A stretch of DNA of 64,000 nucleotides from a virus, in the IMG/VR virus record IMGVR_UViG_3300047494_000107, positions 32,001-96,000 of that record. The stretch is one strand, 5' to 3'. Both the position numbers and the translations under genes were made by a program. The notes under the pieces are model-generated. The model had not been told where the DNA came from, did not search any database, and saw only the letters and a list, made by a program, of their open reading frames with translations. Positions 1,339 through 62,660 of this stretch are shown piece by piece. Position 1 is the stretch's first letter, and every line of letters begins with the position of its first letter.

Positions 1339-1416
1339 GGCGTAGGCGCAACCCTGCGGCCTTCTTGGCGCCCCGTAGTAAGACAGGTCACGTCTCATTG
1401 CCGGGTACTGAGGTAA

Positions 1417-4233
1417 ATGCGCGCTTTCAATTTCGTCTTTAGCGCCCTCGCGACGCTGGCTGTATCATCGCCGCTGTTCGCGCAGACGCCGCCTGATTCG
1501 TCTTTGCCGTTCGGCGCGCTGCTTCAGACTCAGAACGCGACAAACTCCGACACACGGCTTGAGGCCACTCAGGGCTATGTCCTCGCTCACGCGTCGGCGG
1601 TTTCGGTGCCGGTGGCGAGTGTGCTGGCCGGCGTCACTTCCGGGTCTACTACCGTTCTGCAGGCCGCCACGGCGTCGGGCATTGAAAGCGTCCTCGGTTT
1701 CACGCCGCTTAGCCCCGCGAACAATCTGTCTGAACTGACGTCTACGGCAGTGACGGCCAGGTCGAATCTTGGTGTGCCGCCTGTTCCGACCAACGCCACT
1801 GTCCTAGGTTGGAATTCGGGCGCTTGGTACGCTCCTGCGCTATCGGGTAGCGGTACCACTGTGATGACGTCTAGCCAGACGTCATTCACGCTCGGCGATG
1901 TGTTGACGCCGTCCGGTTCGGGCGATCTTGCCGACCTCGGCGTGATGAATTTGTCCAGCACCGTGGTCACGATGCAGGGTGCTCAAAACAACATTTATTT
2001 CACGCCATCTGCAGCCGCCAACACCCAAGACGTTATCGGGACCAGCGGGACGGACACGAATGTTAACCTGCGGTTCACGATGCAGGGCGCGGGTGCGGCG
2101 CAGTTCCAGAATGCCGGGGCGACATGCCCCGTCAATATCGGCTCGGTGAACGGTGGGTCTCCCTTCATCAACACAGGCGGTGTGGCATGCGACCTGTATG
2201 TGTCGGCGGGGACCTCCGCCGGTGCGAATAACATCCATTTTCAGCCGGCCGGTCTTCAGGTTCTTGAACTGAGCGTCGCGAGCGGGTCACCGACTGGCGG
2301 CGTGCAGATTACGAGCGGCGCTGGCCAAGCCAAAATCGGTGTCATTGATGGCACGAACGCTAACTCGAATCTGATCTTGGCGGCCAAAGGCACTGGCACT
2401 GTCCAGGCGCCGACGAATTCGTCCGCTATCGATTCCACGGCGCAGGTGGCGACGGATAAGTTCGTGCAAAACGCCATGGCGGCGGTTGTGCCAAATATCC
2501 CCGCGGTGTCGCCGATCTGCAGCACGACGATGGCGACGGGCACAACTGGCAACCCAGGCGGCAACGTCTACGGCCGCAAGGTGTTTTATTGCCCCCAGGG
2601 CGGCAGCCCTCTTCAGCTTCTGATTCCTAGTTTTTACGTCAGCGGGTCTCAGGTTGAGACGCCGTTGACCTCAGTTATCATGGTCAATCTGTCGGTGCAG
2701 CCGAACTTGCCGGCGCCGTGGAATCCAGCAACGACCTATACGAGCGGACAAAGTGTCACGTACACGCCGACGGGCACGTCCAGCGCGCCGACACCATACG
2801 TCTATACGGCGACGACATCTAACACGAACAGTCTGCCGACTCCTGGCAACAGCAACTGGTCGGCCGGCACGGAACCAGCTCGCGTTTCGGTCACGTGCAA
2901 TCATTCGCAGACATGCATCATCCCGGTGACGTTGACCGGGGCCGGCGTCTATCAGACCGCAGCCGACGTCCTGACCGATCCGATTCCAGTCGCGGTCTCT
3001 GCTGGGTCGTACCTTGGCGTCTACACTTGGATGCCGAAGACCAGCGCCAACAGCCAGTACGCAGGCACGTCGCAGGGTTTCGTTGAACTCGGCGACAGCC
3101 TGCATGTGTCGCAGTTCGGGGTCGACCTCACGGCGTCTGGGGATACGAACACCAACACGGCTGGTGGTTTTCCCGTCACCGCGATCGTCGGTGTGCGCAC
3201 CACGCCGGGCCCGAGCGCTTGCGTTATCGGGACGAGTCTTGACGACGGGTTCTCTGAGGCGGGCGGCGGTCTGAGCAGCTTCACTTTCGTGAGCGCCGGA
3301 ACTGGACACACATCGGCGGAAATTGGGCATCGACTGCGGATGAACAACGCGGGCGCCAGTACCCACGCTGTCGGCCAGGTTGTGGCAGGTGCGGGGAACG
3401 GTGGTATCGGCACGGGCACCGTCGACAACGGCGCAGAGTTCATTATCTCGTCCGTATCAGGCGGCGCTGTAACGCTGACGACAGCCTGGAACGGTATCTA
3501 CAGTTCCGGTCAAGGGGAGACGGTACCGAACGGCACGCAAGGTTTGTACGATCTGGATTCGTCGACCCCTACGACCTTGACCAACATCACGATCACACCG
3601 AACTTCGGTTTGGCAACGTACGACAACTACCACCAGTTCTTTCAGCGCGGGATGCTTGCTCGCGGTCTCAACGATGCCGACATCCCGACGGTCATGCTGG
3701 CGCGCAGCGGCGATACACTCGTCGGCTTTCTGTCTCGCGCCGTTGACCGGTTGGCGGAAATTCAGCGCGTCGGCTGCAGCACGGTCATCATCGACAGCGG
3801 CTACAACGATCTATCGGCGGGCACGTCTGCGTCCGTAGTAGAGGGATATATCACGTCGGTTGCGCAGGAAGTCGCGCTTATTCCGGCTGTAAAGTCGGTC
3901 CTCGTGGCGACGATCAAGCCGTTGGCGATCACGACGACGGACGGTTTTGAGACGACCGCCAACATGACGGTCAGTGCAAACAACGCCAATGTCCAAGCCG
4001 TCAACGCCTGGATGCGTACGAATTTCGCCGGGGCCGCAGCGCCACCTACGCAGACCGCTCCGATCACCGGCTACTTGGAGATATCGGACACGCTGTCGCC
4101 GAACCGCGACGGCAAGCTGATCCCAGGAACCGGTGTCGTCTGCCAATACACCGCTGATGGGGTGCATTTGACGCCGGCCGGTTACGCGAAAGTCGAGACG
4201 GCTGTTGCCGCACAAGCGGGGAAGATCCTGTGA
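1417..4233 (+). CDS. Exported fibre-like protein with CBM5/12-like module and C-terminal SGNH hydrolase
   Basis: Signal peptide (..SPLFA|Q); fibre motif DSTAQVATDKFVQ; WNPATTYTSGQSVTY..NWS; SGNH blocks IGTSL, GYND, DGVH. Confidence 0.7.
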   Translation: MRAFNFVFSALATLAVSSPLFAQTPPDSSLPFGALLQTQNATNSDTRLEATQGYVLAHASAVSVPVASVLAGVTSGSTTVLQAATASGIESVLGFTPLSPANNLSELTSTAVTARSNLGVPPVPTNATVLGWNSGAWYAPALSGSGTTVMTSSQTSFTLGDVLTPSGSGDLADLGVMNLSSTVVTMQGAQNNIYFTPSAAANTQDVIGTSGTDTNVNLRFTMQGAGAAQFQNAGATCPVNIGSVNGGSPFINTGGVACDLYVSAGTSAGANNIHFQPAGLQVLELSVASGSPTGGVQITSGAGQAKIGVIDGTNANSNLILAAKGTGTVQAPTNSSAIDSTAQVATDKFVQNAMAAVVPNIPAVSPICSTTMATGTTGNPGGNVYGRKVFYCPQGGSPLQLLIPSFYVSGSQVETPLTSVIMVNLSVQPNLPAPWNPATTYTSGQSVTYTPTGTSSAPTPYVYTATTSNTNSLPTPGNSNWSAGTEPARVSVTCNHSQTCIIPVTLTGAGVYQTAADVLTDPIPVAVSAGSYLGVYTWMPKTSANSQYAGTSQGFVELGDSLHVSQFGVDLTASGDTNTNTAGGFPVTAIVGVRTTPGPSACVIGTSLDDGFSEAGGGLSSFTFVSAGTGHTSAEIGHRLRMNNAGASTHAVGQVVAGAGNGGIGTGTVDNGAEFIISSVSGGAVTLTTAWNGIYSSGQGETVPNGTQGLYDLDSSTPTTLTNITITPNFGLATYDNYHQFFQRGMLARGLNDADIPTVMLARSGDTLVGFLSRAVDRLAEIQRVGCSTVIIDSGYNDLSAGTSASVVEGYITSVAQEVALIPAVKSVLVATIKPLAITTTDGFETTANMTVSANNANVQAVNAWMRTNFAGAAAPPTQTAPITGYLEISDTLSPNRDGKLIPGTGVVCQYTADGVHLTPAGYAKVETAVAAQAGKIL

Positions 4234-4715: not shown

Positions 4716-6692
4716 ATGCGTACGTTTCTGACTGGTTTGGCAGTTTCGTTCGGGGCGCTCCTTGCCGCTGCGACGGCTTTCGCGCAGACGCCGCCTGACT
4801 CGTCGTTGCCCGTCGGGTCGCTTCTGCAGCCTCAGCCGTACACCAATTCTGACACCCGTCTTCAGGCTACTCAGGGGTACGTGCTTGCGCATGCTGGCAC
4901 TGTCCAGGTGCCGACCGCCAGTGTATTGGCCGGCTCGGGAAACGCGCTGGTTGCGGCGACCGGCACTGGTATCGCAAACGTCCTCGGTTTCACACCGCTT
5001 AGCCCCGCAAACAACCTGTCTGAGCTGACGTCGACGGCCTCGACTGCTCGGTCGAACCTCGGCGTTCCACCTGTTCCGAGCGCTGCGGCGGCAGTGCTGG
5101 GTTGGAGCACGTCGACCGGGTGGACGTCGTCGTCTATCTCGGGGTCCGGCTCGACTCTTATGAGTTCGGCTCTGACGGCTTTTACGGCGGGCGATGTTCT
5201 CACACCGTCAAGCACAGGCGACCTTGTTGACGTCGGGCTGCTGAACCTCAACAGCGCCGGAACGCTAGCGCTCATCAAGGGCGCGCTTCATGTCCAGTCG
5301 TCTGGCGCGACATGCCCTGTCAACATTGGGTCTTCGAGCGGTGGCGTTCCCTTCATCAACACGGCTGGGGGCGCCTGCGATCTAGCCGTCACAGCTGGTA
5401 CGTCGGGCGGCACCAACAACCTCAAATTTTATCCGGACGGCCTTCAGGTTCTTGAACTGAGCGTGTCGTCCGGCACGCCGACAGGTGGCGTGCAAATCAC
5501 CGGAGGTGTCGGTCAGGCGAAAATTGGCGTCATCGACTCTGGGGCCAACTCCAATCTGGTTTTGGCGGCCAAAGGTACTGGCACTGTCCAGGCTCCGACG
5601 AACTCGTCCGCAGCAGACAGTACAAATCAGGTGGCCACTGACGGCTTCGTTCAGTCGGTGGCTGACGCGTTGGCGCCGAGCAGCACTACAGTCAACCCCA
5701 CGACACCCCCGTCTCTCGTCGGCCTGACAAGCACGGCCGGCAGCACCACGCCGATCACACTGGGCACGGGACTGACGCTAACGGGCGGTGTTTTGAGTTC
5801 CACTGGCAGCGGGTCGGGGTCTGGATCAGTCGCTAGTGGCGCGCTAGGCACTATTGCCTACTACGCTGCAGCCGGTACGTCGGTCGTTGGCGGTACGCCG
5901 TCTACGATCGGTATTGCTTCACTGTCGGCCACACAGACCTTCACCGGAAATAACACGTTCACTGGCACGGTGACGCTTCCTGGTGGCTACTTGCCTTCGA
6001 ACTTCAACGGCTGGACGACCGGCAGCCCTGTTGCGGTAACCAATTTAACGACGAATGACGGTTCGACTGATATCGCCACTGATGCGTTCGTCCAGGCAAA
6101 TGAGGCGCTTATTTCGCCGCAGGTGGCCGATAACACGCACTATCTGCTTGCACCTACGAGCACACTCGGTGCCACGCAGGTAATCACACTCGGCAGTAAC
6201 CTGTCCATTGCGAGCGGCGTTCTGAGCGCTACAGGCGGTGGCGGCTCTGGTTCGGGAACTGTCGGAAACGGAAGCCAGTATCAGGTCGCGTATTACAACG
6301 GCACAGGGACGACACAATCGGTCATTGGCGGCTCTCTTTCCACCATAGGTGCGGCGCCGATCGCCAGCCCTTACTTCACAGGTGTAATGGCGTTCAACAA
6401 CGCTGGTTCTGCGCCGATCATCAAGACAGCGAGCGAGACTTTAGCTGCCACGTATCAGTCTGTGCGCGAGTACAAACCGACCGCTAGCGGGTTGACAGTT
6501 ACGCTGTTTACGCCGTCAGGGGGAGCCCCCTACCCGAACTTCATTCTGCATAATTCCGCAAATTTCAGCCCTTCAACGGGCGGTTTCAATGTCACAGTTT
6601 TGGCACCGGATGGTTCTACCGTCATTGCCACCGAAGCGCCTGGTGGTACATGCGGCGCCAAATACGACGGCACGACATGGGAGTGCTGGTAA
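4716..6692 (+). CDS. Exported tail-fibre-like protein, paralogue of 1417..4233
   Basis: Signal peptide; N-terminal ~300 aa similar to the 1417 protein; fibre motifs QVATDGFVQ, DIATDAFVQ, APIASPYFTG; C-terminal YDGTTW. Confidence 0.75.
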   Translation: MRTFLTGLAVSFGALLAAATAFAQTPPDSSLPVGSLLQPQPYTNSDTRLQATQGYVLAHAGTVQVPTASVLAGSGNALVAATGTGIANVLGFTPLSPANNLSELTSTASTARSNLGVPPVPSAAAAVLGWSTSTGWTSSSISGSGSTLMSSALTAFTAGDVLTPSSTGDLVDVGLLNLNSAGTLALIKGALHVQSSGATCPVNIGSSSGGVPFINTAGGACDLAVTAGTSGGTNNLKFYPDGLQVLELSVSSGTPTGGVQITGGVGQAKIGVIDSGANSNLVLAAKGTGTVQAPTNSSAADSTNQVATDGFVQSVADALAPSSTTVNPTTPPSLVGLTSTAGSTTPITLGTGLTLTGGVLSSTGSGSGSGSVASGALGTIAYYAAAGTSVVGGTPSTIGIASLSATQTFTGNNTFTGTVTLPGGYLPSNFNGWTTGSPVAVTNLTTNDGSTDIATDAFVQANEALISPQVADNTHYLLAPTSTLGATQVITLGSNLSIASGVLSATGGGGSGSGTVGNGSQYQVAYYNGTGTTQSVIGGSLSTIGAAPIASPYFTGVMAFNNAGSAPIIKTASETLAATYQSVREYKPTASGLTVTLFTPSGGAPYPNFILHNSANFSPSTGGFNVTVLAPDGSTVIATEAPGGTCGAKYDGTTWECW

Positions 6693-10337: not shown

Positions 10338-10350
10338 AGGGACCTGAATC

Positions 10351-12186
10351 ATGCCAAACATGGACGTCCCGTTCCAGGGTTCCACGCTCATCATTCCGGG
10401 TGCCTATTACGCTGACAACGTCAGTGCCGCGCTGCCCGCCAACGCGCCCGTCACGCCGCCTCTGCTGTTCGTCGGCTTCGGCTACGGCCCAAAGCCGTTG
10501 ACGATCAACCAGTTCAGCAGCACACAGGACCTGCAGACGGCGCTTCGTGGCGGACCTGCCTCGGCTTTCATCCCCTTCATCGCCACGCCTTCGCCGCAGC
10601 TCAATGGCGCGCAGATCGTCACGTTCATTGATGTCAGTTCGAACACCCAGAGCACCATCAACCTGACCGGCGGCACGGGTGCGACCAACGTCCTGGCGTT
10701 GACGTCGGACCTTTATGGGTTGCCGTCGAACCTGTTGCAGACCAGCGTATCCACCTCGTCGTACGGCGCGGTCTACACCGGCAACACGAATGCCGCGGCA
10801 TCGCGCCTTCTGACGATCTACGACGGCTATACCGGCACAACGGTTCAGCAAGACAACCTCGGCATTCCGTTCCAAGTCGCTTACACGGGCGCTGCGTCAG
10901 CCGCGAGTTACACCGTCACGGCTACGGGCGGTGTTGCCACGAAGATCGTGCTGACGAGCAGCAATCCGGGCGAGAGCGTCACGGTTCCGATCAGTTCGGG
11001 TGCTTACCAGACCATTTCTCAAGTCGTCAGTTACATCGAAGGCACAGGTTTCTGGACAGCGAACACGCTGACCAACGGCGATTTGCCCGCGACGAACCTC
11101 GACGCTGGCAGTGGTGTTCTTCCGGTCCCGTCGGGCAGTACGCTCACGTATGGCTATCCGTCGGCCACACTCGGCGATGTCGTTTGGTGGATCAACAACC
11201 ACGCCGGCAATCTCGCCACGGCGTCTGTTAGCGGGTCGCCCACGGCTGGTCCTGCGAGCGCTCTGACGGCGCTGCCGTTGACGCATTTCACGGGCGGCCA
11301 GAGCATTCCGCCGACGACTTCCAGCTACGCCAGCGGTCTGACTGTGGCGCTGTCCACGGCGGCTTGGACGGTTATCACGGACACCGCGGCTCCAGCCGCC
11401 CAGCAGCTCATGGCGCAGCACGCCTTGCTGGCGTCCGAGCCTGGCTATGGCAAGTGGCGGCGCGCGGTCACGGGTTCGAACCTGGGTGATAGCGTCTCGA
11501 CGACGCTGACGAACGCCGCGGCTTTGAACGTCGTTGAGGCGACCTACGTCTACCCGGGCATTCAGCGTGCTGATCCGGTGAGCGGCCAGATCATCAACCG
11601 ACCTGGTCTCTACGCCGCGGCGGCTGTGGCGGCGATGATGACGGGCAATGGCGCCAATGTGCCGCTGACGAACAAGGCGCTCGTCGCGTCCGGCATGGAG
11701 TTGAACAACAACCTGCCAGTTAGCTTGACGCTGTCGCAGATCGACCAGCTTCAACAGGGCGGCGTCATGCCGATCGCTGTGCTGGACAATACGCGTGTGC
11801 CGAAAGTCGTGTCGGATTTCACGACCTGGCTGATCGACGACAATCCCGAGAACGTCTTCAACCAGCAGATCGCCGAAAGATTCTACCTCGCCTACACGAT
11901 GGTGAACACGCTGCAGCCGTACGTGGGGACCACTGCTGACCCGTATGACGAGATGAAGATCTTGAATGCGGCGAAAGCGGCGTTGAACAACGTCACGTAC
12001 AGCCAGGGTAACCCGACTGGGGTGATCTCGTCATGGGACCCCAGCACATTGGCGCTGGTCTACTCGGGCAGCAATCAGGTCGCGGCGATCACGGTGAACG
12101 CGGTGTTGGTGGGCCAGAACAGGTTTATCACATGCGTCGTTAACGTACTGGCGCTGAATATCTCCATTACTGCGTCTTCGACCTAA
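10351..12186 (+). CDS. Contractile tail sheath protein
   Basis: 611 aa; N-terminal IIPGAY; AAAVAAM..PLTNK..L..GGV sheath C-terminal pattern; directly precedes tube gene. Confidence 0.88.
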   Translation: MPNMDVPFQGSTLIIPGAYYADNVSAALPANAPVTPPLLFVGFGYGPKPLTINQFSSTQDLQTALRGGPASAFIPFIATPSPQLNGAQIVTFIDVSSNTQSTINLTGGTGATNVLALTSDLYGLPSNLLQTSVSTSSYGAVYTGNTNAAASRLLTIYDGYTGTTVQQDNLGIPFQVAYTGAASAASYTVTATGGVATKIVLTSSNPGESVTVPISSGAYQTISQVVSYIEGTGFWTANTLTNGDLPATNLDAGSGVLPVPSGSTLTYGYPSATLGDVVWWINNHAGNLATASVSGSPTAGPASALTALPLTHFTGGQSIPPTTSSYASGLTVALSTAAWTVITDTAAPAAQQLMAQHALLASEPGYGKWRRAVTGSNLGDSVSTTLTNAAALNVVEATYVYPGIQRADPVSGQIINRPGLYAAAAVAAMMTGNGANVPLTNKALVASGMELNNNLPVSLTLSQIDQLQQGGVMPIAVLDNTRVPKVVSDFTTWLIDDNPENVFNQQIAERFYLAYTMVNTLQPYVGTTADPYDEMKILNAAKAALNNVTYSQGNPTGVISSWDPSTLALVYSGSNQVAAITVNAVLVGQNRFITCVVNVLALNISITASST

Positions 12187-32507: not shown

Positions 32508-32750
32508 GTGACGCCTCGTCGACCTGCCGACAAGGCGAGCGACCTCACGCAGATACAAGAAATGGTAGTCGCGTTCGTGGCGCAGGCGATCGTCGCTCCT
32601 GCCGGCGAAGACAGCCCAGTGGCGTTCATGGTGTCGTACGAAACTCAGAGCGGCGAACTCGTGACACGCTGCTTCCCTGACCTGACGACAGTTGAGCAGG
32701 GGTTCATTCGCATCCTGTCAGCGAAACCGATCTACGACTTATCTGACTAA
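32508..32750 (+). CDS. Hypothetical protein
   Basis: Directly follows the phosphoesterase. Confidence 0.55.
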   Translation: MTPRRPADKASDLTQIQEMVVAFVAQAIVAPAGEDSPVAFMVSYETQSGELVTRCFPDLTTVEQGFIRILSAKPIYDLSD

Positions 32751-32877
32751 CCTGCGCACCCTGTTTTGATATTTCGCCGTAGCTTTTCCCACTTGCGTTC
32801 GATGTCAGCCCGCCGCACTGCTCGTGAAACTAAAACAGCGGTTACGGCAGCGCCGAGCAGCCCTAGATACACGCAAA

Positions 32878-33189
32878 TCATAGGCAGTTCTCAACCTCCA
32901 TGGCTTCAACTACGCGCTGAGCTATCAGGCGCGGAGAAATGTGCTCCTCGTAGAAGGCGGTCCCGGCTGGACACTTACGGCGTTCGTCATCCCGGTATTG
33001 GCGGACGATCTCTTCTCGGACCACCCGAGCTACGCGCTTCACGACAGCGCCCGGCGATAAGCAGCTTGTTGAGGCTGTCGGCGGCGTCGCAAACCGCTTT
33101 GGCGCAGGCGGCCTATCCGTCACCTGGAAGGTGTCATTTCTGCCGCCTTTCCTGCGATTGCCCTCAGCTAAAGGTTTGACCGTGCTCAT
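32878..33189 (-). CDS. Small hypothetical protein (MSTVKPL start)
   Basis: ATGA overlap with upstream gene. Confidence 0.45.
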   Translation of the reverse strand: MSTVKPLAEGNRRKGGRNDTFQVTDRPPAPKRFATPPTASTSCLSPGAVVKRVARVVREEIVRQYRDDERRKCPAGTAFYEEHISPRLIAQRVVEAMEVENCL

Positions 33190-33548
33190 ATCGCAACTCC
33201 GTCGTGATACCAAGCGCTATAACTGAGCGGCGCACCGCTTACCGGAAAGCCAATCAGCTTAGCGACAGACGCATAGCCTTTGCACACGCGCGATTCGTCG
33301 TAGTGGCAACCCCAGGGTCGCCCTGCGGCTCTTGCCATATCCAGTATTTGGATATTGGTGGGTAGACATCCGTAATTTTGGGCTTGCTCTGCCCACTCAT
33401 TGACGCTGAACGGGCATGTCAAACATCCGTCGCATCCGGCAGATAGCGCTTTTGAGACGGTTGCCGAATCAAGGGGCGTTAATTCAGACCGACCGTCGAC
33501 TACCGCCAGTTCACGCAGCGCATCAGATAAAGGTTTGACCGTGCTCAT
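33186..33548 (-). CDS. Cys-rich hypothetical protein (MSTVKPL start)
   Basis: CxxCPF..YGCLP..WGCH..CKG; AAGGA RBS. Confidence 0.7.
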   Translation of the reverse strand: MSTVKPLSDALRELAVVDGRSELTPLDSATVSKALSAGCDGCLTCPFSVNEWAEQAQNYGCLPTNIQILDMARAAGRPWGCHYDESRVCKGYASVAKLIGFPVSGAPLSYSAWYHDGVAI

Positions 33549-33588
33549 GTTTCGTCCTTTGGCGCGACCATATGTCGCCTTCCGTAAA

Positions 33589-33804
33589 TCACAGTGGCCT
33601 CAAGGGCTGCGGCCGCACCTGATCCGCAAGGGCGGATATTCGCGCGCGTCGATCCGCTAATATTCTTTGCACGCGAGGGCTGGCCGTGTTGAGCGTCGTC
33701 TTGAACTCCACCTTTGCCGCCAGTTCGCGCAAAGCCTCGGCCACGAAGCGCCGGTCATCGCCAGAAACTGTGATCGTCACATCGTCAGGGTCCGACTCGC
33801 TCAT
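33589..33804 (-). CDS. Small hypothetical protein
   Basis: GGAGG RBS, ATGA overlap. Confidence 0.55.
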   Translation of the reverse strand: MSESDPDDVTITVSGDDRRFVAEALRELAAKVEFKTTLNTASPRVQRILADRRARISALADQVRPQPLRPL

Positions 33805-33995
33805 CCCCCACCCCTCCGCTGTTCAATCCGCCCGCATGGTGCCCAATCCGCTAGATCGGCCCAGGCGTTGGCAATGTCGGCCGGGGTTCCTGTCGGGCTA
33901 GCGTCGCCATGAAACCATATGCCGTGCGCCGCCACGACGTTCATGAGAAGCCGCTGGCGCTCGCTTATGGCCGGCTCTTGGGACTTGTCAGTCAT
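33801..33995 (-). CDS. Small hypothetical protein
   Basis: Overlap-coupled in array. Confidence 0.55.
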   Translation of the reverse strand: MTDKSQEPAISERQRLLMNVVAAHGIWFHGDASPTGTPADIANAWADLADWAPCGRIEQRRGGG

Positions 33996-34144
33996 CGCGG
34001 GAACCCTGCCGCTACAACTAGACGGACGCTAGCCATTCGTGACCACGGCCAGCGGAACCTATGCCGACCTGTGCAAGACCATGCGCGCCGCTCATCACGG
34101 TCTTTGACCCAGATCCAAAGACGGCCGATTGTCGAATCAGCCAT
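33992..34144 (-). CDS. 50-aa hypothetical protein (below ORF-track cutoff)
   Basis: MADSTIGRLWIW..; overlaps both neighbours. Confidence 0.5.
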   Translation of the reverse strand: MADSTIGRLWIWVKDRDERRAWSCTGRHRFRWPWSRMASVRLVVAAGFPR

Positions 34145-34364
34145 TGCGCAACTCCCATGCCGCACCCACTTGTTCCGGCGTCATTGCCGTCGATGACACC
34201 ACAATCGCGTATGCATCCTGCCCGGTATCGGCATCATACAGGCGAGGTGCATTTCGGCCGTCGAATACACGCTGGATCGCCTCATCCAGATCAGCGGCAT
34301 CGACCTGCTCTTTCCAGTCTCTGAACAAGACTTCGTACTTGGGAAGTTTTGTCGCCTCACTCAT
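34137..34364 (-). CDS. Small hypothetical protein
   Basis: GGAGG RBS, 8-bp overlap. Confidence 0.55.
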   Translation of the reverse strand: MSEATKLPKYEVLFRDWKEQVDAADLDEAIQRVFDGRNAPRLYDADTGQDAYAIVVSSTAMTPEQVGAAWELRNG

Positions 34365-34656
34365 CCCCCGCCCTCCTTCGCTCAATCCACACCCGCAGTT
34401 CCCGCGCCGCATGCAGCAACTCCGAACTCCAGCGCCTAGGCACGCCGCTCCATTCCGTGAACGGGCCGGCAGGTCGCCACCACACGCCGGGCAGGCGCTC
34501 CCACAGGTCGAAGCCTCGCACGGTCAAAGGCGCATCCATGCCGGCGCACCATACCTGGATCATCTTGGGGCCGTAGGGTAGTTGGCTCATGCAGGAGCGC
34601 CAGTCGTCGCCGACGGGAAATGGGGTGCTTTCGAAGGTGAGGGAGGCGTTAGGCAT
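34357..34656 (-). CDS. Small hypothetical protein
   Basis: ATGCCTAA overlap. Confidence 0.55.
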   Translation of the reverse strand: MPNASLTFESTPFPVGDDWRSCMSQLPYGPKMIQVWCAGMDAPLTVRGFDLWERLPGVWWRPAGPFTEWSGVPRRWSSELLHAARELRVWIERRRAGDE

Positions 34657-35056
34657 GCTTAACCGACCCCGCGCCCATTAATTCAGTGATCTCATTGAAG
34701 CACAGAACGGCGGCAAACCCCTCGTCCGTTCCAAGCCTGTCGGCGATTTCCTCACACGCGGCCAACGAAGCGGCCAGAACGCCCCGCAGCCTCTGTATCT
34801 CCCCCGCGCATTCCCCCAACGTCGCCGAGCGCAGCCGACCCGCGCCGTCCGGTCGCCACCAGAGGTTGCCGTAGAATTCGTCGGTGGGGGTTGGATCAGA
34901 TTGGGTTTGGTCCGTCGTGCCGGCGACCACAGCAAAACCGCATCGCTCAAGGGCCGCCAGAACCTCGGTCGCCACACGCCGCGCATCGCTGTTGCCGTCG
35001 CCGCACACGCATTCGATTTCCCGTGCGATGATTGAGATCGGCGTCGATTCAGGCAT
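34649..35056 (-). CDS. Hypothetical protein (MPEST start)
   Basis: ATGCCTGA overlap. Confidence 0.6.
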   Translation of the reverse strand: MPESTPISIIAREIECVCGDGNSDARRVATEVLAALERCGFAVVAGTTDQTQSDPTPTDEFYGNLWWRPDGAGRLRSATLGECAGEIQRLRGVLAASLAACEEIADRLGTDEGFAAVLCFNEITELMGAGSVKHA

Positions 35057-35309
35057 GCGGATTCACCTTCTGCATGGCCGCAACCACGGCAAGCGTCACC
35101 GCTTTGACGCCGCGCGTAACCGGCCAGAGACTGGGATTGCCCGCAAGTTCGTCGCCAGGGTCGGCCTCGTTCGCCGCCTGATCAAAAATTTGCACAAGGT
35201 CCTGCAACGCCAAGCCGGGGGCAATCGCTTTACACGACAACACCATTCCGGCGTGCTCCGTGGTGAGGGTTCCGAAGTCCGGGGCTGTGGATTCAGGCAG
35301 TTCGGTCAT
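35049..35309 (-). CDS. Hypothetical protein (MTELPEST start)
   Basis: Overlap-coupled in array. Confidence 0.6.
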   Translation of the reverse strand: MTELPESTAPDFGTLTTEHAGMVLSCKAIAPGLALQDLVQIFDQAANEADPGDELAGNPSLWPVTRGVKAVTLAVVAAMQKVNPHA

Positions 35310-35608
35310 GTCAGCTTACCTAGCAGGACGCGAGCCAATATCTGGTGCGGTTTGTCTGCCCACCAATCAGCGTAGATGCTTTCCGTTCCGTCGAGCGGAC
35401 CGAATGCGAGCTTTTCAACTTCGCGTCTATCCAGCGCGTCTGCCGACTTCATAGCGATTGCCCGCTCAAGGGTGGCGAGATCATCCTTTGATCGGCGTGG
35501 GTTTATTTCGCAGCCGCTTTGGTCCAGCGCGCGGCGCAATGTGGCCGTCTTGCGTTCAGCTATCGCGGCGGCCTCGGTCACGGCGGAGTAGCCGGTCGAT
35601 TCAGGCAT
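35306..35608 (-). CDS. Hypothetical protein (MPEST start)
   Basis: GGAGG RBS, ATGCCTGA overlap. Confidence 0.6.
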   Translation of the reverse strand: MPESTGYSAVTEAAAIAERKTATLRRALDQSGCEINPRRSKDDLATLERAIAMKSADALDRREVEKLAFGPLDGTESIYADWWADKPHQILARVLLGKLT

Positions 35609-35849
35609 GGACGCGCGCCTCCCGTATGTTGTCGAGAACCAACCGGCGCGCATACTCCGCATTGAGGCAATAGCAGTCCGTCACCCACCCTCGCCGGGTC
35701 CACTTTTGGACCTCGGCGGGGCCGACGCGCCAAGCCCCGGATGGCGTGCCGCATTCATCGTCCAACGTCACGCCGCAGAACGGGCATTCGTCGGTGTCGG
35801 GGTCGAGGCCGATGCAGGGTGGTTCTGTTGATTCAGGTTCCCCACTCAC
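35601..35849 (-). CDS. Cys-rich hypothetical protein (MSGEPEST start)
   Basis: GTGA overlap; CPFC, CYC. Confidence 0.55.
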   Translation of the reverse strand: MSGEPESTEPPCIGLDPDTDECPFCGVTLDDECGTPSGAWRVGPAEVQKWTRRGWVTDCYCLNAEYARRLVLDNIREARVHA

Positions 35850-36088
35850 CGCCGCACCCCCAACGCTTCCTTCATCCACCCGACCCCATGCAGGAACCAA
35901 GCTTGGCCAGGCGTGCAATTCGGCATGATCGCCCGCGCGGCCGCGATGACCTCCACGGGCACGACGATTTGGGCGGTTTCCTCGAACTGATACCACCCGT
36001 TCGGCCCGAAGCCACCGCCGCCTCGTTTGAGGGTGATGGTGCGTTCAGGCTCGGTCAGGTCGCAGGGGGCGATCAGTTCGTCCGTCAC
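35846..36088 (-). CDS. Small hypothetical protein
   Basis: GTGA overlap. Confidence 0.55.
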   Translation of the reverse strand: MTDELIAPCDLTEPERTITLKRGGGGFGPNGWYQFEETAQIVVPVEVIAAARAIMPNCTPGQAWFLHGVGWMKEALGVRR

Positions 36089-36261
36089 CGCCGCACCTTC
36101 TTCGCTTCCGCCCGCAGCCCCGACTGGATTAACCGCCGCAGCGTCTCCATCTCTGAGCCGATCTGCTCGGACAGCCGGAACTCAGCGACGCTCGCCCACA
36201 GACTCTCTGGCAGGGTCACGCTCTTTCGGATCATAGGCTCGGGCGGCTTCGGCTTGCTCAT
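36085..36261 (-). CDS. Ribbon-helix-helix (CopG/Arc-like) regulator
   Basis: RKSVTLPESLW..V..FR....I.SE.E.LRRLI..GL. Confidence 0.75.
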   Translation of the reverse strand: MSKPKPPEPMIRKSVTLPESLWASVAEFRLSEQIGSEMETLRRLIQSGLRAEAKKVRR

Positions 36262-36372
36262 GCCTCTTGGTAGCAGGATGCAGCGCACCATGCAAGCGCG
36301 ACAGTGGTGAGATTGGTGTTGCGCGGCGGCGGGGGATGTGCTGTAAGTTGCGAACAGAATATGGAGGACGGG

Positions 36373-36525
36373 ATGAGCGACTATCGGATCACCTACGATA
36401 CGCTGCTAGGTGGCTACTCAATTGAGCGGCTAGCGACTGGCAAGCGAGGATATCGCGGCTGGCTCAGGATCAGCAACCACCGCACCTATGACGATGCCAA
36501 GGCCGCTTTCACCGCATTCACCTAA
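36373..36525 (+). CDS. Small hypothetical protein
   Basis: GGAGG RBS. Confidence 0.55.
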   Translation: MSDYRITYDTLLGGYSIERLATGKRGYRGWLRISNHRTYDDAKAAFTAFT

Positions 36526-36543
36526 CCCTTGATCGAGGTAGCC

Positions 36544-36810
36544 ATGAGCCAGGAGGATTACGACGTAGGCTACGAAGAAGGTCGCGCCTCCCGCCAATGG
36601 GAAATCGACCTAACCGCCGAGGACACGATGCCGTCCGGACACACCGACGACCGCGCTATGACGCCATATCGGGCCGCGCTGCTTGCGCGCCTTCCGGTGG
36701 CGCGGATCGCGCTGGAGACACAAGAGCGGCGGCAGCTAAACGAAATGGTGCGCTTCGGCTGGGTCGAAGATGACGGCACCGTTTACCGCCGCGTTGAACA
36801 ATCAACCTGA
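36544..36810 (+). CDS. Small hypothetical protein, possibly a fusion (second RBS+ATG at 36628)
   Basis: GAGG RBS; internal junction motif at 36603. Confidence 0.5.
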   Translation: MSQEDYDVGYEEGRASRQWEIDLTAEDTMPSGHTDDRAMTPYRAALLARLPVARIALETQERRQLNEMVRFGWVEDDGTVYRRVEQST

Positions 36811-36828
36811 TCGCCGGAGGACCGAACG

Positions 36829-37017
36829 ATGCCTTACGCCACACACAGCCTCGAACGCACAAGTCCCAAAGGCCGGGGGCAAAAATTCCTCGGTCGCTGC
36901 ATTCGATGCGGCATGACAGACTTGCCAGCCAGCGCCGCGTTTGATCCGTGCGAGAATCATGCGCGGGTGAGCGACGATGAGGCGTTGTTGCTAGCCATCC
37001 GTGGCCCTTCAACCTAA
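36829..37017 (+). CDS. Small Cys-containing protein
   Basis: GGAGG RBS; CIRC..CEN. Confidence 0.65.
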   Translation: MPYATHSLERTSPKGRGQKFLGRCIRCGMTDLPASAAFDPCENHARVSDDEALLLAIRGPST

Positions 37018-37033
37018 TCCAGGAGCCTGCCCC

Positions 37034-37294
37034 GTGGTGGACTGGCGTGCGCGATTGCAGGAATTTCGGGGTAAATTCAACCTCTGGCACCGCGCTGTTT
37101 GCGAATGGCGCCGAGGTCAAATCCGCGTCTGGCCGCTCAACCCCAGCGACGACTTTTCGGGCGAATTGCCGAAAGCCTACAAGGGCACGCCGGTCGTCTG
37201 GAACAATCTGGGCGTTTCGAAACCACCCAAGCCACCAGCCAATTGGTCGCCGCCGCCCGGCTGGGTGCCTTTCGACAAACGCAAATCAACCTAA
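37034..37294 (+). CDS. Small hypothetical protein
   Basis: AGGAG RBS, GTG start. Confidence 0.55.
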   Translation: MVDWRARLQEFRGKFNLWHRAVCEWRRGQIRVWPLNPSDDFSGELPKAYKGTPVVWNNLGVSKPPKPPANWSPPPGWVPFDKRKST

Positions 37295-37299
37295 CCCCC

Positions 37300-37497
37300 A
37301 TGGCCCGATGCGCCCGCTGCGACGCCCCCGAAAGCCAATGGCGCATCCACCCATGCCCAGCGTGCGGCTATCCAGGCCCCGACACACGCCCGCCAGAGCG
37401 CGTCACGCAGGACGAAGCTGACCGGCATGCGCGGATTTGGGGCGACGAACATGTCTATGCGCCGGGGGCGGATGGGTGTGTGGTTTGTGGGTGGTGA
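37300..37497 (+). CDS. Small zinc-ribbon-like protein
   Basis: CARC, CPAC, CVVC. Confidence 0.6.
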   Translation: MARCARCDAPESQWRIHPCPACGYPGPDTRPPERVTQDEADRHARIWGDEHVYAPGADGCVVCGW

Positions 37498-37564: not shown

Positions 37565-37822
37565 TCACCAATGGGTCAGCGGTGCCCGCACGGTGACTGC
37601 CCAAGGCGTGGTGGCTGGGGCGGTTTGCAGAACAATCCCGACGCTCACTTTCGTTACCCAGACACCCTTATACTGAATGACAACACCAGGAGAGACCTTC
37701 GAAAATTGTGCTCCTGTGTTTTGCAGCACAACACCAGGAGAGACCTTCGAAATCTCCGCCTGCTGTGCCATTGCGATGCTCGGAAGAAACAACATCAGCC
37801 CAGCGACAATCCAACGGATCAC
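37565..37822 (-). CDS. Small exported repeat protein
   Basis: Signal peptide ..AMA|Q; three xxKVSxGxVxQ repeats; 25-bp direct repeat at 37680/37728. Confidence 0.7.
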   Translation of the reverse strand: MIRWIVAGLMLFLPSIAMAQQAEISKVSPGVVLQNTGAQFSKVSPGVVIQYKGVWVTKVSVGIVLQTAPATTPWAVTVRAPLTHW

Positions 37823-44571: not shown

Positions 44572-45597
44572 TCAGCGCGGCGGAGCATACCCGGGATACT
44601 GGCCGGGCGGCGGAGCAGGGGGCTGCTGCGGGAAGTTCTGGTACGGCGGAGCAGGCGGAGCAGGCGGAGCAGGCGGAGCAGGCGGAACGGCCGGTGTCAG
44701 GTGGCCCTGGTACGCAGGAGCCGGTGCCGGCTGCGGGTAGCCCTGGTACGCAGGAGCCGGTGCCGGCTGCGGGTAGCCCTGGGGCGCATACTGAGGCGCG
44801 GGCGGCTGCGCTCCCGGATAACCCGGCTGCGGCGCCACGTACTGCGGGGGTGGCTGATACGCCGGCTGTGGCGTCTGCGGAGGGGCATTCCACGGCTGCG
44901 GCTGTTCCGGCACCGGATACCCCTGGAAGGCCGGCGCAGCTGGTGCCGACGGCGGAGCAGCAAACGCTCCTGGAGGACCTGCAGGCGCGGCGCCCGCGAT
45001 CGGCGCGAACCGCTTCTGCACATCTTCCAGACTACGCTCATTCGTCGACAGACGCTCACCGTCCCTGGCGAACTGGATCGTGTCGAGGTAGATCGTGATG
45101 CCGCGGTTCGTCACGGCGCCGGTCTTGCGGTCCTTGTATTCGAACTCACTGATCTTGATCTCGGCGATGACATAGCAGCCGCTGTAGATCGTCGACGCTG
45201 GCGCCGGGAACGCATTCGCGCCGAGCACGAACGGCACTTTCGCCGATGAGGCATTGATATACCACTTGCCCTGGTACTCGGGACCCTTGGCTTTGCCGGT
45301 CTTGACCGATACCGACGATCCGTTCTTCAGCGGCGACTGAATGAGGTTCTGCTTGACCTTGTCCGACCCACTGCCGCTCGCATCCGAGAACGCCGCGTCC
45401 GCAACGCGCAGAATGGCCGCGTAGATGTTGGCGATATCCTCTTGGTCTTCGAGGATCAGGTTCGTCCCGTAGTCGTAGACCTTGTTTCCATCCTTGTCCG
45501 TGTAATCTTTCTCGCGCGGTGCCGAGATGTTACAGTACGACGTACGGGCGACCCTCTTCAGGACATAGTTTTCCTGGGCCTTCGGTTTATCAGCCAT
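44572..45597 (-). CDS. ssDNA-binding protein (DUF2815-like) with Pro/Gln/Tyr-rich tail
   Basis: R.SY..P; PL.NG; INASS; IYSGCY; NRGI..L..IQF.RDGERL. Confidence 0.85.
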   Translation of the reverse strand: MADKPKAQENYVLKRVARTSYCNISAPREKDYTDKDGNKVYDYGTNLILEDQEDIANIYAAILRVADAAFSDASGSGSDKVKQNLIQSPLKNGSSVSVKTGKAKGPEYQGKWYINASSAKVPFVLGANAFPAPASTIYSGCYVIAEIKISEFEYKDRKTGAVTNRGITIYLDTIQFARDGERLSTNERSLEDVQKRFAPIAGAAPAGPPGAFAAPPSAPAAPAFQGYPVPEQPQPWNAPPQTPQPAYQPPPQYVAPQPGYPGAQPPAPQYAPQGYPQPAPAPAYQGYPQPAPAPAYQGHLTPAVPPAPPAPPAPPAPPYQNFPQQPPAPPPGQYPGYAPPR

Positions 45598-60845: not shown

Positions 60846-61024
60846 CACATGTAGTCCCGGCCGAACCACGCCAAGGCCACCAGCCCGGCAATGGCGATCA
60901 CCGCCAAAGTAAGCGTCCTGACAGGATGCTGCTCCCAGTCATCGCCGGCCTGCCACAGCCTGACGAGCCAACTCTCGGGCTTCACGGCGTAGGTCTCTGA
61001 CGGCGTCGCGTTCTCGCTGTCCAT
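60845..61024 (-). CDS. 59-aa membrane protein (MDSENATPS start; below ORF-track cutoff)
   Basis: AAGGAGG RBS, TGATG overlaps at both ends, C-terminal TM segment. Confidence 0.6.
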   Translation of the reverse strand: MDSENATPSETYAVKPESWLVRLWQAGDDWEQHPVRTLTLAVIAIAGLVALAWFGRDYM

Positions 61025-61962
61025 CAGACGTCCTCCTTCGGGCGCCCGTTTTCATCCAACGTGTACCAAACATAAGGTTTGATACCGTCTCTCCCCACGA
61101 TTCCGGCCCACGCGTGGGTGATGTTCCAGTCGTCGTCTCGTCGCGCTAAAAACAAAGCGTTTCCTGTAACGCCCATGACGCGACCGTACTTGCCGGATGA
61201 CATTGCGGCGGACCGGTCGCCCGTGGAGGAGGCGGCGGACTGATCGCCCGTGGAGGAGGCGGCGGACTGGTAGCCCGTGGAGGAGGCGGCGGACTGGTAG
61301 CCCGTGGAGGAGGCGGCGGACTGGTCGCCCGTGGAGGAGGCGGCGGACTGGTCGCCCGTGGAGGAGGCGGCGGACTGGTAGCCCGTGGAGGAGGCGGCGG
61401 ACTGGTCGCCCGTGGAGGAGGCGGCGGACTGGTAGCCCGTGGAGGAGGCGGCGGACTGGTAGCCCGTGGAGGAGGCGGCGGACCGGTCGCCCGTGGAGGA
61501 GGCGGCGGACTGGTAGCCCGTGGAGGAGGCGGCGGACCGGTCGCCCGTGGAGGAGGCGGCGGACTGGTAGCCCTCGACGTGCTTGCTCCCCGTAGCCGTT
61601 GCTCGCGCGATCACCCATTCGATGGCGCGCTTGACAAGATCGGGAATCTTGATCTCAGCGTCGATGGTGATGCGCGCGCTGGCGATCTTCGCGTCATCGG
61701 CGCTCTCACGTGATGTTTCGCCGGACTGCCGAACATCCGCGTAACGAGAGGCGCCGGGCGCATAGTAGCTGAACACGCTGAGCGGATGATGGTCGACGCT
61801 GCACGCGTGAAAACCAGACTGGCAGGCGATGACAGGTCCGACATGCTCGTAGGTCTTGCCGACCTCGAACTGATAGCCACGACATTTCCAGTCGAGGTCA
61901 AAGCCTTTAATTGACGCGATCTCTTCATCTGTATCCGACGGTGTTGCGTTCTCGCTGTCCAT
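61024..61962 (-). CDS. Phage protein with KGF..CRGYQFEVG/C.SGFHAC domain and 9-aa repeats
   Basis: GGGAG RBS then ATG at 61962; C-terminal VG..GIKP..WY.L. Confidence 0.8.
   Translation of the reverse strand: MDSENATPSDTDEEIASIKGFDLDWKCRGYQFEVGKTYEHVGPVIACQSGFHACSVDHHPLSVFSYYAPGASRYADVRQSGETSRESADDAKIASARITIDAEIKIPDLVKRAIEWVIARATATGSKHVEGYQSAASSTGDRSAASSTGYQSAASSTGDRSAASSTGYQSAASSTGYQSAASSTGDQSAASSTGYQSAASSTGDQSAASSTGDQSAASSTGYQSAASSTGYQSAASSTGDQSAASSTGDRSAAMSSGKYGRVMGVTGNALFLARRDDDWNITHAWAGIVGRDGIKPYVWYTLDENGRPKEDV
61195..61572 (-). repeat. 27-bp coding tandem repeat, 14 units
   Basis: G(YQ/DQ/DR)SAASST x13 plus one degenerate unit. Confidence 0.95.
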
Positions 61963-61982
61963 GTCTGTCTCCCATGTGCTGT

Positions 61983-62660
61983 TCATTCCCAGAAGCTCGC
62001 CAGCGGCTTCACGCCGGCCTCGTCTATCAACCGCGTCACCAAGTCGATGAATGCCCCGCGTGCCGCCGAGGGTGTCATCAGCGTCTGCGTCGGCACATGC
62101 GAACACGGCGGAAGCGCCGGCCAATCTCGCAACGGCGTCGCCATGAAGTCTCGCTTCTCGACCGCCAAGGCCAGCAGATCGGCCTTCTTGACCTTCCGCT
62201 CCAATTCGCCGAACTCATCGGCCGGGCAGTAGAGCAAACGCTCCGTCAGCCCTGCCGCGGCCTCGACCGCCACCTGGACGCGCTGTTGAAGCGCCTTCAC
62301 AGGGTTGAACGCCACGTCAAAACGCTGACGGATAAGCTCACCCAGGGCATCCTGCATCGGCGACGTGATATCGCCCGTGACGTATTCGTGGGCGTCATGC
62401 AGCGCCGCCATCAGCATCTCGAATGCCGAGGCTTTCGGGGGCATGAGACTGGCCACCAGGACGCTGTGCTGCGCCACCGAATAGGGCGGTTCGACGACTC
62501 CCGTAGCGACGCACGTATGGTTGGCGAACCTGCCCTCACGAGACAGCGCCACACCAATGTCACGCAGCCGAATGACGTGCGGATCAGGGTCCAAGAGTTG
62601 GAACGGGGCGCCGCTACGCAGCTGCATCCAGGTGCGGGACAGGACTTCAGGACTGGTCAT
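61983..62660 (-). CDS. HD-domain 5'-deoxynucleotidase (YfbR-like)
   Basis: DI..ALS...RF.NH; YSVAQHS; LHDAHE...GDI..P; AD. Confidence 0.88.
   Translation of the reverse strand: MTSPEVLSRTWMQLRSGAPFQLLDPDPHVIRLRDIGVALSREGRFANHTCVATGVVEPPYSVAQHSVLVASLMPPKASAFEMLMAALHDAHEYVTGDITSPMQDALGELIRQRFDVAFNPVKALQQRVQVAVEAAAGLTERLLYCPADEFGELERKVKKADLLALAVEKRDFMATPLRDWPALPPCSHVPTQTLMTPSAARGAFIDLVTRLIDEAGVKPLASFWE

Follow-up and report, generated by a model that had tools for sequence, protein, structure and literature searches.

The subject of this analysis is an array of very small genes on the minus strand of a phage genome, IMG/VR record IMGVR_UViG_3300047494_000107. The record is 110,533 bp long, has direct terminal repeats, and was judged to be complete; the sequence examined, referred to here as the window, is the 64,000-nt stretch formed by bases 32001-96000 of that record, and positions are those of the window unless stated otherwise. 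The genome encodes structural and lytic proteins (tail sheath, tape measure, baseplate and fibre proteins, and an endolysin), replication proteins (a family-A DNA polymerase, a helicase, and a primase-like protein), a tyrosine integrase, a DUF2800 PD-(D/E)XK nuclease, and an Enc34-type single-stranded DNA (ssDNA)-binding protein. This content suggests a temperate myovirus that carries a replication module of its own. It is a new phage, without a close relative in the searched collections. No GenBank phage has a DNA polymerase more than 33% identical to its own, and a gene flanking the array has relatives at 35-38% identity in viral contigs only, with none in bacterial genomes.

The array is an operon of 14 open reading frames (ORFs), g01 to g14, which specify proteins of 44-135 aa and run from 36261 down to 32747; 13 of them lie within 32878-36261, a span in which an earlier sequence-only reading had counted 12. 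At its head, g01 faces a divergent plus-strand array of small genes, and its end converges on plus-strand lysis/nuclease genes. Start/stop overlaps of 4 or 8 nt, that is, spacings of -4 or -8, are present at 12 of the 13 junctions. Seven of the overlaps are of 4 nt (GTGA twice and ATGA five times) and five are of 8 nt (ATGCCTGA twice, and ATGCCTAA, ATGAGTGA, and ATGGCTGA); the sole junction without an overlap is a 40-nt gap between g11 and g12. At the starts that were inspected (g04, g06, g07, g08, g09, and g11-g13), motifs resembling a Shine-Dalgarno (SD) sequence lie within the last codons of the upstream gene, and a convincing SD was not found at the start of g01 itself. The codons right after the starts are comparatively AT-rich and unstructured, and the codon-position GC of most of the array genes, about 0.65/0.50/0.70, is the pattern of the phage's long genes. 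Co-oriented ORFs, spacings of -4, -1, or -8, and SD sequences within the upstream ORF characterize translationally coupled operons; the array has co-oriented ORFs, spacings of -4 and -8, and SD-like motifs in the upstream ORF at the inspected starts. Spacings of -4 and -8 are classes enriched among coupled prokaryotic gene pairs, and the 12 overlaps belong to exactly these classes, NTGA and NTGNNTGA, respectively (PMC12548453). We infer from this layout that the operon probably uses ordinary translational coupling. However, such generic coupling, which would account for the architecture, does not account for identical blocks of 15-26 nt at particular neighboring junctions.

These blocks form four pairs of direct repeats, A to D, on the minus strand. 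Repeat A (36076-36109 and 35837-35870) is 34 nt long and 76% identical, with a 13-nt exact core. Within it lies GGTGCGGCGGTGA, which had been noted at 35846 and 36085 and which indeed occurs there and nowhere else in the genome; it flanks g02 on both sides to give a 239-nt unit. Repeat B, CATGCCTGAATCGAC, comprises the stop of g03 and the start of g04 (35595-35609), and its second copy, identical at 15/15 positions, comprises the stop of g05 and the start of g06 (35043-35057), the pair bracketing g04 and g05 in a 552-nt unit. Repeat C (34353-34373 and 33793-33813; 86% identical) consists of a strong SD followed by ATGAG and brackets g08-g10, a 560-nt unit. It corresponds to the GGAGGG-type junctions previously placed at 33804 and 34364; the pair is real, with GGGGGATGAG as its exact part, but the copies differ by a 1-nt indel, which makes one overlap 8 nt and the other 4 nt. 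Repeat D (33523-33548 and 33164-33189) encodes the MSTVKPL head. Its two copies, reported earlier and the only ones in the genome, match at 25/26 nt with a 21-nt exact run and bracket g12, a 359-nt unit. Deletion of any bracketed unit between its own repeats is predicted from the sequence to leave the operon intact.

Other motifs recur at the gene heads. The PEST-encoding sequence CCTGAATCNAC is present exactly four times in the window, on the minus strand and at gene heads each time (35043, 35287, 35595, and 35827), precisely where the sequence-only reading had seen it, compared with 0.16 copies expected from shuffles; there is no extra copy in the 110,533-bp genome. In g03 the PEST head is internal (35825-35837, codons 5-8) and matches the internal copy of g05 (35285-35297) at 12/13 nt. 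The variant described at 34131 is ATGGCTGATTCGAC, which forms the start of g09 within its 8-nt overlap with the g08 stop. CATGCCTRA occurs three times genome-wide, each time at an array junction, and, as had been observed, the three upstream proteins end in HA. All of the reported motifs are in register with gene starts and unique in the genome, bar one CCTGAATC in the start region of the tail-sheath gene.

When gene starts are aligned on the start codon, the exact runs are 21 nt for g12/g13, 15 nt for g04/g06, 13 nt for g02/g03, and 10 nt for g08/g11, each with P <= 0.001 where 11,476 pairs formed from the genome's remaining gene starts serve as controls. Of the 91 pairs within the array, about 0.1 would be expected to share a run of at least 10 nt, and four do. 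Local direct repeats of at least 13 nt number three in 3.7 kb, compared with about 0.3 expected from Markov simulations. The four best pairs are also near neighbors (gene-index distances of 1, 2, 1, and 3), for which we estimate a chance of about 0.025, given that 36 of the 91 pairs are at a distance of 3 or less. In addition, the similarity is sharp-edged: the g04/g06 identity spans -1 to +14 between unrelated flanks, and beyond its 26 nt the g12/g13 pair has no match.

Because the 15/15, 25/26, and 13-nt-in-34 blocks have identical third positions and unrelated flanks and lie at neighboring junctions, they are better explained by copying than by convergence. If convergence were the whole explanation, the shared sequences would simply be initiation elements optimal for this phage and its host, consisting of the SD, the overlap, and an AU-rich patch of the CCUGAAUC type; selection would have kept or reinvented them, and they would be silent on the origin of the genes. 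All five genomic copies of CCTGAATC, including that of the late sheath gene, are on the coding strand and no more than 20 nt from a start codon; the invariant CCT and GAA codons are A/T-ending, which is taken to be the less common synonymous choice at a genomic GC of 60%; the junctions are unstructured, and junction C amounts to a strong SD followed by ATGAG; and ATGCCTGA overlaps and MP[DE] heads recur in four other viral contigs (L011, L014, L018, and L020). However, convergence should yield fuzzy similarity rather than exact blocks, similar junctions group as neighbors rather than by overlap class, and the identical heads of g04 and g06 are preceded by SD regions that are not alike. As a full account, convergence is thus rather unlikely. 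Part of the junction similarity is nonetheless functional, as seen in the SD and ATGAG of junction C, the generic overlap types, and the AT-ending codons after the start. Two further translational roles were considered and dropped: complementarity of CCUGAAUC to 16S rRNA or as a downstream box, for which no convincing pairing was apparent, and a programmed +1 frameshift at GCC-TGA, for which reasoning gave no slippery pairing.

The genes behind these heads are otherwise dissimilar, as the sequence-only reading had maintained. All-against-all BLASTP of the array genes gave no match below E=0.04, and Smith-Waterman comparison with shuffling of the motif-sharing pairs, with their N-termini removed, gave z scores of 0.2-0.5 and no similarity between the gene bodies. 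Profiles of the two domain families found in g06 (described below) matched g06 only in the six-frame translation of the genome. Together these searches rule out an array of tandem paralogs, including diverged full-length ones.

From the head of the operon, all on the minus strand, the first gene is g01 (36085-36261, 58 aa), which has an alternative ATG at 36291, ends in VRR, and overlaps g02 by GTGA. Its weak PHROG matches (phrog_4738, "transcriptional repressor," E=0.001; phrog_16979, E=3e-4) make it a probable small regulator of the ribbon-helix-helix type; Pfam and PDB sequence searches with it gave no match. Both g02 (35846-36088, 80 aa; codon-position GC 0.65/0.51/0.80) and the Cys-rich g03 (35601-35849, 82 aa) start with GTG; g03 begins VSGEPEST and ends in HA at a ATGCCTGA overlap. 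The next two genes are g04 (35306-35608, 100 aa), beginning MPEST, and g05 (35049-35309, 86 aa), beginning MTELPEST and ending in HA. In g05 the codon that precedes the CCT is CTG, one base off ATG. Searches of the phage database gave no homolog of g03 and no match for g04 or g05. The two-domain protein g06 (34649-35056, 135 aa) begins MPEST and ends in HA at a ATGCCTAA overlap. It is followed by g07 (34357-34656, 99 aa, MPNAS), for which the ESM Atlas returned nothing, and by g08 (34137-34364, 75 aa, MSEAT), which overlaps g07 by ATGAGTGA. The coding status of g09 (33992-34144, 50 aa, MADST), which overlaps g08 by the 8-nt ATGGCTGA, is the least certain in the array. Then come g10 (33801-33995, 64 aa, MTDKS), g11 (33589-33804, 71 aa, MSESD), and, after the 40-nt gap, g12 (33186-33548, 120 aa), a Cys-rich member of phrog_5821. 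The last two are g13 (32878-33189, 103 aa), whose conserved REEIVRQYRDDERRKCPAG core occupies residues 48-100, and g14 (32747-32881, 44 aa), which has a hydrophobic N-terminus and is convergent with the plus-strand genes. Within the array, only g01, g06, g12, and g13 have family or homolog matches, and a function is known for none of them; the anti-defense or host-takeover role suggested earlier for the array's cargo is accordingly a guess.

Three of the genes, g06, g12, and g13, have relatives in the large protein collections. Residues 1-47 of g06 (the N-domain) belong to a family of standalone proteins of 52-87 aa with the motif VCSDGNSDARRVA, and residues 48-100 (the core) to a family of about 45 standalone proteins of 54-90 aa with the motifs DEFWxGIWWVPDG and GECAxEIKRLR. 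The relative nearest to the core, P0002, shares about 82-90% identity with it (HMMER/BLASTP) and begins precisely where the two domains meet. Elsewhere the two families are mostly separate proteins of 52-90 aa, and a few homologs (P0025, P0037, and P0052) span both. The AlphaFold model of g06 (pLDDT 77.5) contains two separate folded units with a disordered linker; residues 1-5 (MPEST) are coil, residues 47-55 are below pLDDT 50, and a PDB fold search with the model gave no match. Both families (proteins P0015-P0064) are found metagenome-wide and are without a Pfam or PHROG model. A WWRPxG patch is common to g07 and the g06 core; the similarity is weak (profile E=0.33), and degenerate copies of the core in g05, g07, and g09 were rejected, with hhalign probabilities of 3-7% that are not significant and no match in g05 or g09 by profile search.

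In g12, conservation sets in near residue 34, and its phrog_5821 relatives have unrelated N-termini. Its composition is foreign-looking: GC is low (0.55) and codon-position GC is flat, unlike its neighbors. The structure model of g12 was too poor for use (pLDDT 56). In g13, the first 47 aa, with MSTVKPL, form an N-terminal extension that is unique to this phage and whose codon-position GC is atypical.

Fused genes also appear next to the array. The divergent plus-strand array (36373-37497) has about five small genes whose ends read (A)ATCRACCTRAYC, giving proteins that end in FT or ST. One copy of this motif, at 36603, is out of frame within ORF 36544-36810 and is followed by GAGGAC..ATGCC; the ORF thus has a relic junction inside it, and two former genes appear fused. 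Taken with the composite g06 and the extended g13, this relic junction shows that fusion, splitting, and in-frame capture occur in this region. The head ATGCCTTACGCC at 36829 in the plus-strand array differs by one base from the head of g07, ATGCCTAACGCC. The idea that one motif is common to the plus and minus arrays (a "circular permutation") was abandoned: the shared core is merely AWTCNAC, and AATCNACC is no more frequent in the window than expected (4 vs 5.9). The two arrays were treated as independent. The stretch that separates the plus-strand array from the next minus-strand operon contains a 25-nt exact direct repeat, ACAACACCAGGAGAGACCTTCGAAA, on the plus strand (37680-37752) with a spacing of 48 nt; it may be an operator or other regulatory repeat.

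Taken together, these results have led to a model that we consider somewhat more probable than not, namely that the array is a coupled operon in which copied start regions are the scars of gene capture. In this model, 14 tiny, fast-turnover accessory genes would be translationally coupled, and a ribosome terminating at an overlapped stop could restart on the next cistron. A few junction heads, each a start codon with its next 4-8 codons and sometimes the tail of the upstream gene, would have been copied locally. New coding DNA would have been attached in frame after a start region already in place, and the resulting duplication of that region would leave direct repeats of 13-26 nt around g02, g04 plus g05, g08-g10, and g12. 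A single crossover with a circle would be an alternative route to the same pattern. Once present, the repeats could mediate the precise loss or duplication of units through phage or host recombination functions. Gene turnover at or near the boundaries is plausible because the genes are dissimilar, the bracketing repeats are sharp and in register, g12 is foreign-looking, and g06 is composite.

However, several observations weigh against the scar model. No close relative of the array was found in the phage database or among viral, metagenome, and genome contigs, and consequently no indel breakpoint has been observed; the searches yielded distant carriers of single families (L011-L021 and L055-L063), and the array is in none of them. 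Where relatives of g06, g12, and g13 do exist, similarity to them begins 100-140 nt inside the gene rather than at its head. Thus, of the earlier proposal that genes recombine at short boundary homologies, the sharp, in-register repeats that bracket units of one to three genes hold up, but the breakpoints that can be seen do not fall at those boundaries. At 13-21 nt, the repeats are moreover short substrates for homologous recombination. The PEST of g06 is the native N-terminal tail of its family rather than an imported linker, since in the N-domain family alignment its MPESTPISII pairs with QPETTPEEVI, QPETTAEAVI, and SQTTPEDVI, the PETT/QTT tails of standalone homologs. The four PEST copies differ from one another only synonymously (Ser TCA/TCG/TCC/TCG; Thr ACA/ACC/ACA/ACG), and selection on translation or on the peptide could maintain such similarity without recombination. 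Because these differences are confined to the Ser and Thr third positions, part of the similarity may be at the level of the peptide. Finally, the genome's lone extra CCTGAATC (10343-10353, plus strand) is in the start region of the tail-sheath gene, with the SD (AAGGGA) before it and the ATG after it; this gene, too, starts ATGCC (MPN). This location points to a role in translation initiation, and much of the junction similarity may therefore be a translation signal.

The same kind of junction is also found in unrelated phages, and the arrays of two of them count in favor of the scar model. The g06 N-domain family is present in L018 and L020, two unrelated viral contigs, and both show repeated heads and use the ATGCCTGA overlap. 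The N-domain gene of L020 overlaps at its end, by GATGCCTGA, a gene whose start is ATGCCTGAAACCACC (MPETTAP), and CCTGAAACCACCGC is found again 370 nt upstream, within a different gene (MSEHRKPETTAA). The starts of three consecutive small genes in L018 read ATGCCTGAY (MPDAP, MPDAL, and MPDLV), and two of the genes share about 20/22 nt around the start. The presence of the overlap in these phages, the synonymous variation, and the family-native PEST weaken the earlier view that the motifs are recombination linkers. L014, an 85-kb viral contig with the g06-core family, has a small-gene array of its own (1100-2275, plus strand), whose junctions repeat GTGATGATG and which includes a tandem paralog pair; it is a further case of junction reuse.

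The same tails raise the possibility that a short, disordered N-terminal segment (P-E-S/T-T or x-Q-T-T-x-P-D/E) is a functional signal that small phage proteins of unrelated families have in common, such as one for turnover, modification, or targeting. The PEST copies, varying only synonymously, would fit such a tag, as would the conservative variant ADST in g09 and the coil seen at the tail in the g06 model. PETT/QTT tails are found in standalone homologs of both g06 domains, with TT in the N-terminal tail of 21 of about 57; one homolog of the unrelated g13 family starts MTQDPKTT, and L020 has KPETTA, SPTTLP, and MPETTAP on three consecutive genes. However, tails within a family are homologous, so that these counts are not independent, four residues carry very little information, and N-termini rich in Ser, Thr, Asp, Glu, and Pro are common in small proteins. 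In addition, the motif is at residues 5-8 in g03 and g05 rather than at residues 2-5. We know of no bacterial N-terminal signal that matches the PEST tail, and the tag explanation is very unlikely overall.

A more dynamic alternative to the scar model is an active cassette system, in which the junction repeats would be dedicated crossover sites and genes or small groups of genes would excise as circles and reinsert at like junctions. In its favor, each repeat pair brackets a unit of one to three genes whose loss would leave an intact coupled operon, and Campbell-type insertion of a circle would produce flanking repeats of just this kind, for which the PeSL cassettes provide a precedent (PMC2839356). 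The PD-(D/E)XK nuclease and the ssDNA-binding protein could support annealing-type recombination, and one study describes phage recombinases as tolerant of short, diverged homology (PMC3945230). On the other hand, there are four repeat families with two to five copies each instead of one site; the repeats are 10-26 nt long and lack hairpins, promoters, and terminators; no recombinase is linked to them; and the visible homology breakpoints are exclusively intragenic. Furthermore, conservation of the 15-mer head does not extend to other viral contigs, a scan of which gave 33 matches, a number compatible with chance, and none of them falls at a credible junction; the match examined in detail (L050) is antisense within a terminase gene. 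Active excision and reinsertion are thus distinctly unlikely.

The junctions were also searched for signals. No inverted repeats, hairpins, SD-sequestering structures, attC-like folds, or recombinase-type sites were found at them, and their RNA is predicted to fold no more than shuffled sequence (z -1.4 to +1.8). Promoter-like or terminator-like sites are absent from every junction, and a search of the array head gave no promoter-like site. With GANTC present in the gene heads, CcrM regulatory sites were considered as well; this candidate was rejected, as GANTC does not cluster in the array and is missing from the plus-strand motifs. Over the whole genome GANTC is under-represented (242 sites vs about 396 expected from composition), which would fit a host with CcrM-type methylation. 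Stoperators, as in mycobacteriophage L5, are a single asymmetric 13-bp site, oriented with transcription and found genome-wide at gene ends. The motifs here are confined to the array and fall into several unrelated families, which does not fit a stoperator system.

The array can be compared with several known systems. PeSLs are mobile regulatory cassettes in the hyperplastic regions of T4-type phages (Arbiol et al. 2010, PMC2839356; Comeau et al. 2014, PMC4122927). As in that system, short repeats in a variable part of the phage genome mark the borders of small ORFan genes, include the upstream stop, SD, and downstream start, and bracket single genes in a way that would permit deletion or circularization. 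However, PeSLs are intergenic, carry a sigma-70 promoter and a terminator stem-loop, and number about 50 copies per genome, whereas the array has four small families of two to five copies, placed inside overlapping coding sequence and without a promoter or stem-loop at any repeat. Moreover, insertions, deletions, and replacements among related phages coincide with the PeSL repeats, and recombination and mini-circles have been demonstrated experimentally for them, whereas for the array recombination is a prediction from sequence.

The resemblance to an integron, which the sequence-only reading had proposed, is a one-directional row of small genes without promoters of their own, not far from a gene for a tyrosine recombinase. 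Integron cassettes have attC-type imperfect hairpins at every boundary; the array has none, and neither an attI site nor a Pc promoter was identified. The recombinase gene (PF00589, 40442-41539), the only integrase gene, matches the ordinary phage integrase family and lies about 4 kb away. An integron-like nature of the array is not supported. A translation-level analogue of an integron, with shuffling at boundary homologies, is correspondingly improbable.

The modular theory of Susskind and Botstein and the 2001 work of Clark et al. on HK620 reportedly assign to lambdoid phages short, conserved boundary "linkers" for the exchange of modules. There, too, short homologies at gene boundaries are proposed to guide the exchange of unrelated genes, but they are said to have been inferred from related phages, whereas the homology breakpoints visible here are intragenic. 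In cluster K mycobacteriophages, the SAS is a single 13-bp motif upstream of gene starts that is dispersed over the genome. It shares with the array motifs the association of short conserved sequences with the starts of a subset of phage genes; unlike it, the array motifs reach into coding sequence, come in several kinds, and, one octamer at the sheath gene aside, do not occur outside a single 3.5-kb operon.

Given these comparisons, one could imagine that the heads are portable modules, which would provide both translation restart and homology for the in-frame capture, loss, and reshuffling of unrelated mini-genes, although this seems quite unlikely. Equally doubtful, and well short of an even chance, is the associated view of the array as a coding-sequence-embedded counterpart of PeSL cassettes, without the promoter and hairpin, in which the P-E-S/T-T tail would be a protein-level footprint or a functional tag.

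Repeats of other kinds are found elsewhere in the genome. The neighboring large plus-strand genes at 1417-4233 and 4716-6692 share many exact matches of 13-23 nt at a constant offset of about 3.2 kb and appear to be tandem paralogs. The gene for the Enc34-type ssDNA-binding protein contains short tandem repeats of 9 and 36 nt (44645-44780, minus strand). A long tandem array with a 27-nt unit (61205-61570), located inside ORF 61024-62124 on the minus strand, apparently encodes a repetitive, low-complexity protein segment. Beyond the window, at genome positions 109298-110530, near the right end and close to the terminal repeat, a repeat of 67-130 nt is present in three copies about 535-570 nt apart.

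It has long been asked how phages gain and lose small accessory genes, which often serve in host takeover or counter-defense, without breaking the expression of the operons that contain them. The question goes back to the modular theory; the opposing view is that recombination is random and that selection then filters its products. At this locus, in-register stop/start repeats bracket single genes, and the similarity can equally stem from translation signals and from N-terminal tails that are native to a protein family. The locus is a useful cautionary example, and also a cheap and concrete test case, as it predicts four precise deletions, of 239, 552, 560, and 359 bp. In addition, g06 defines two widespread and as yet unnamed families of tiny phage proteins, which in this phage are fused.

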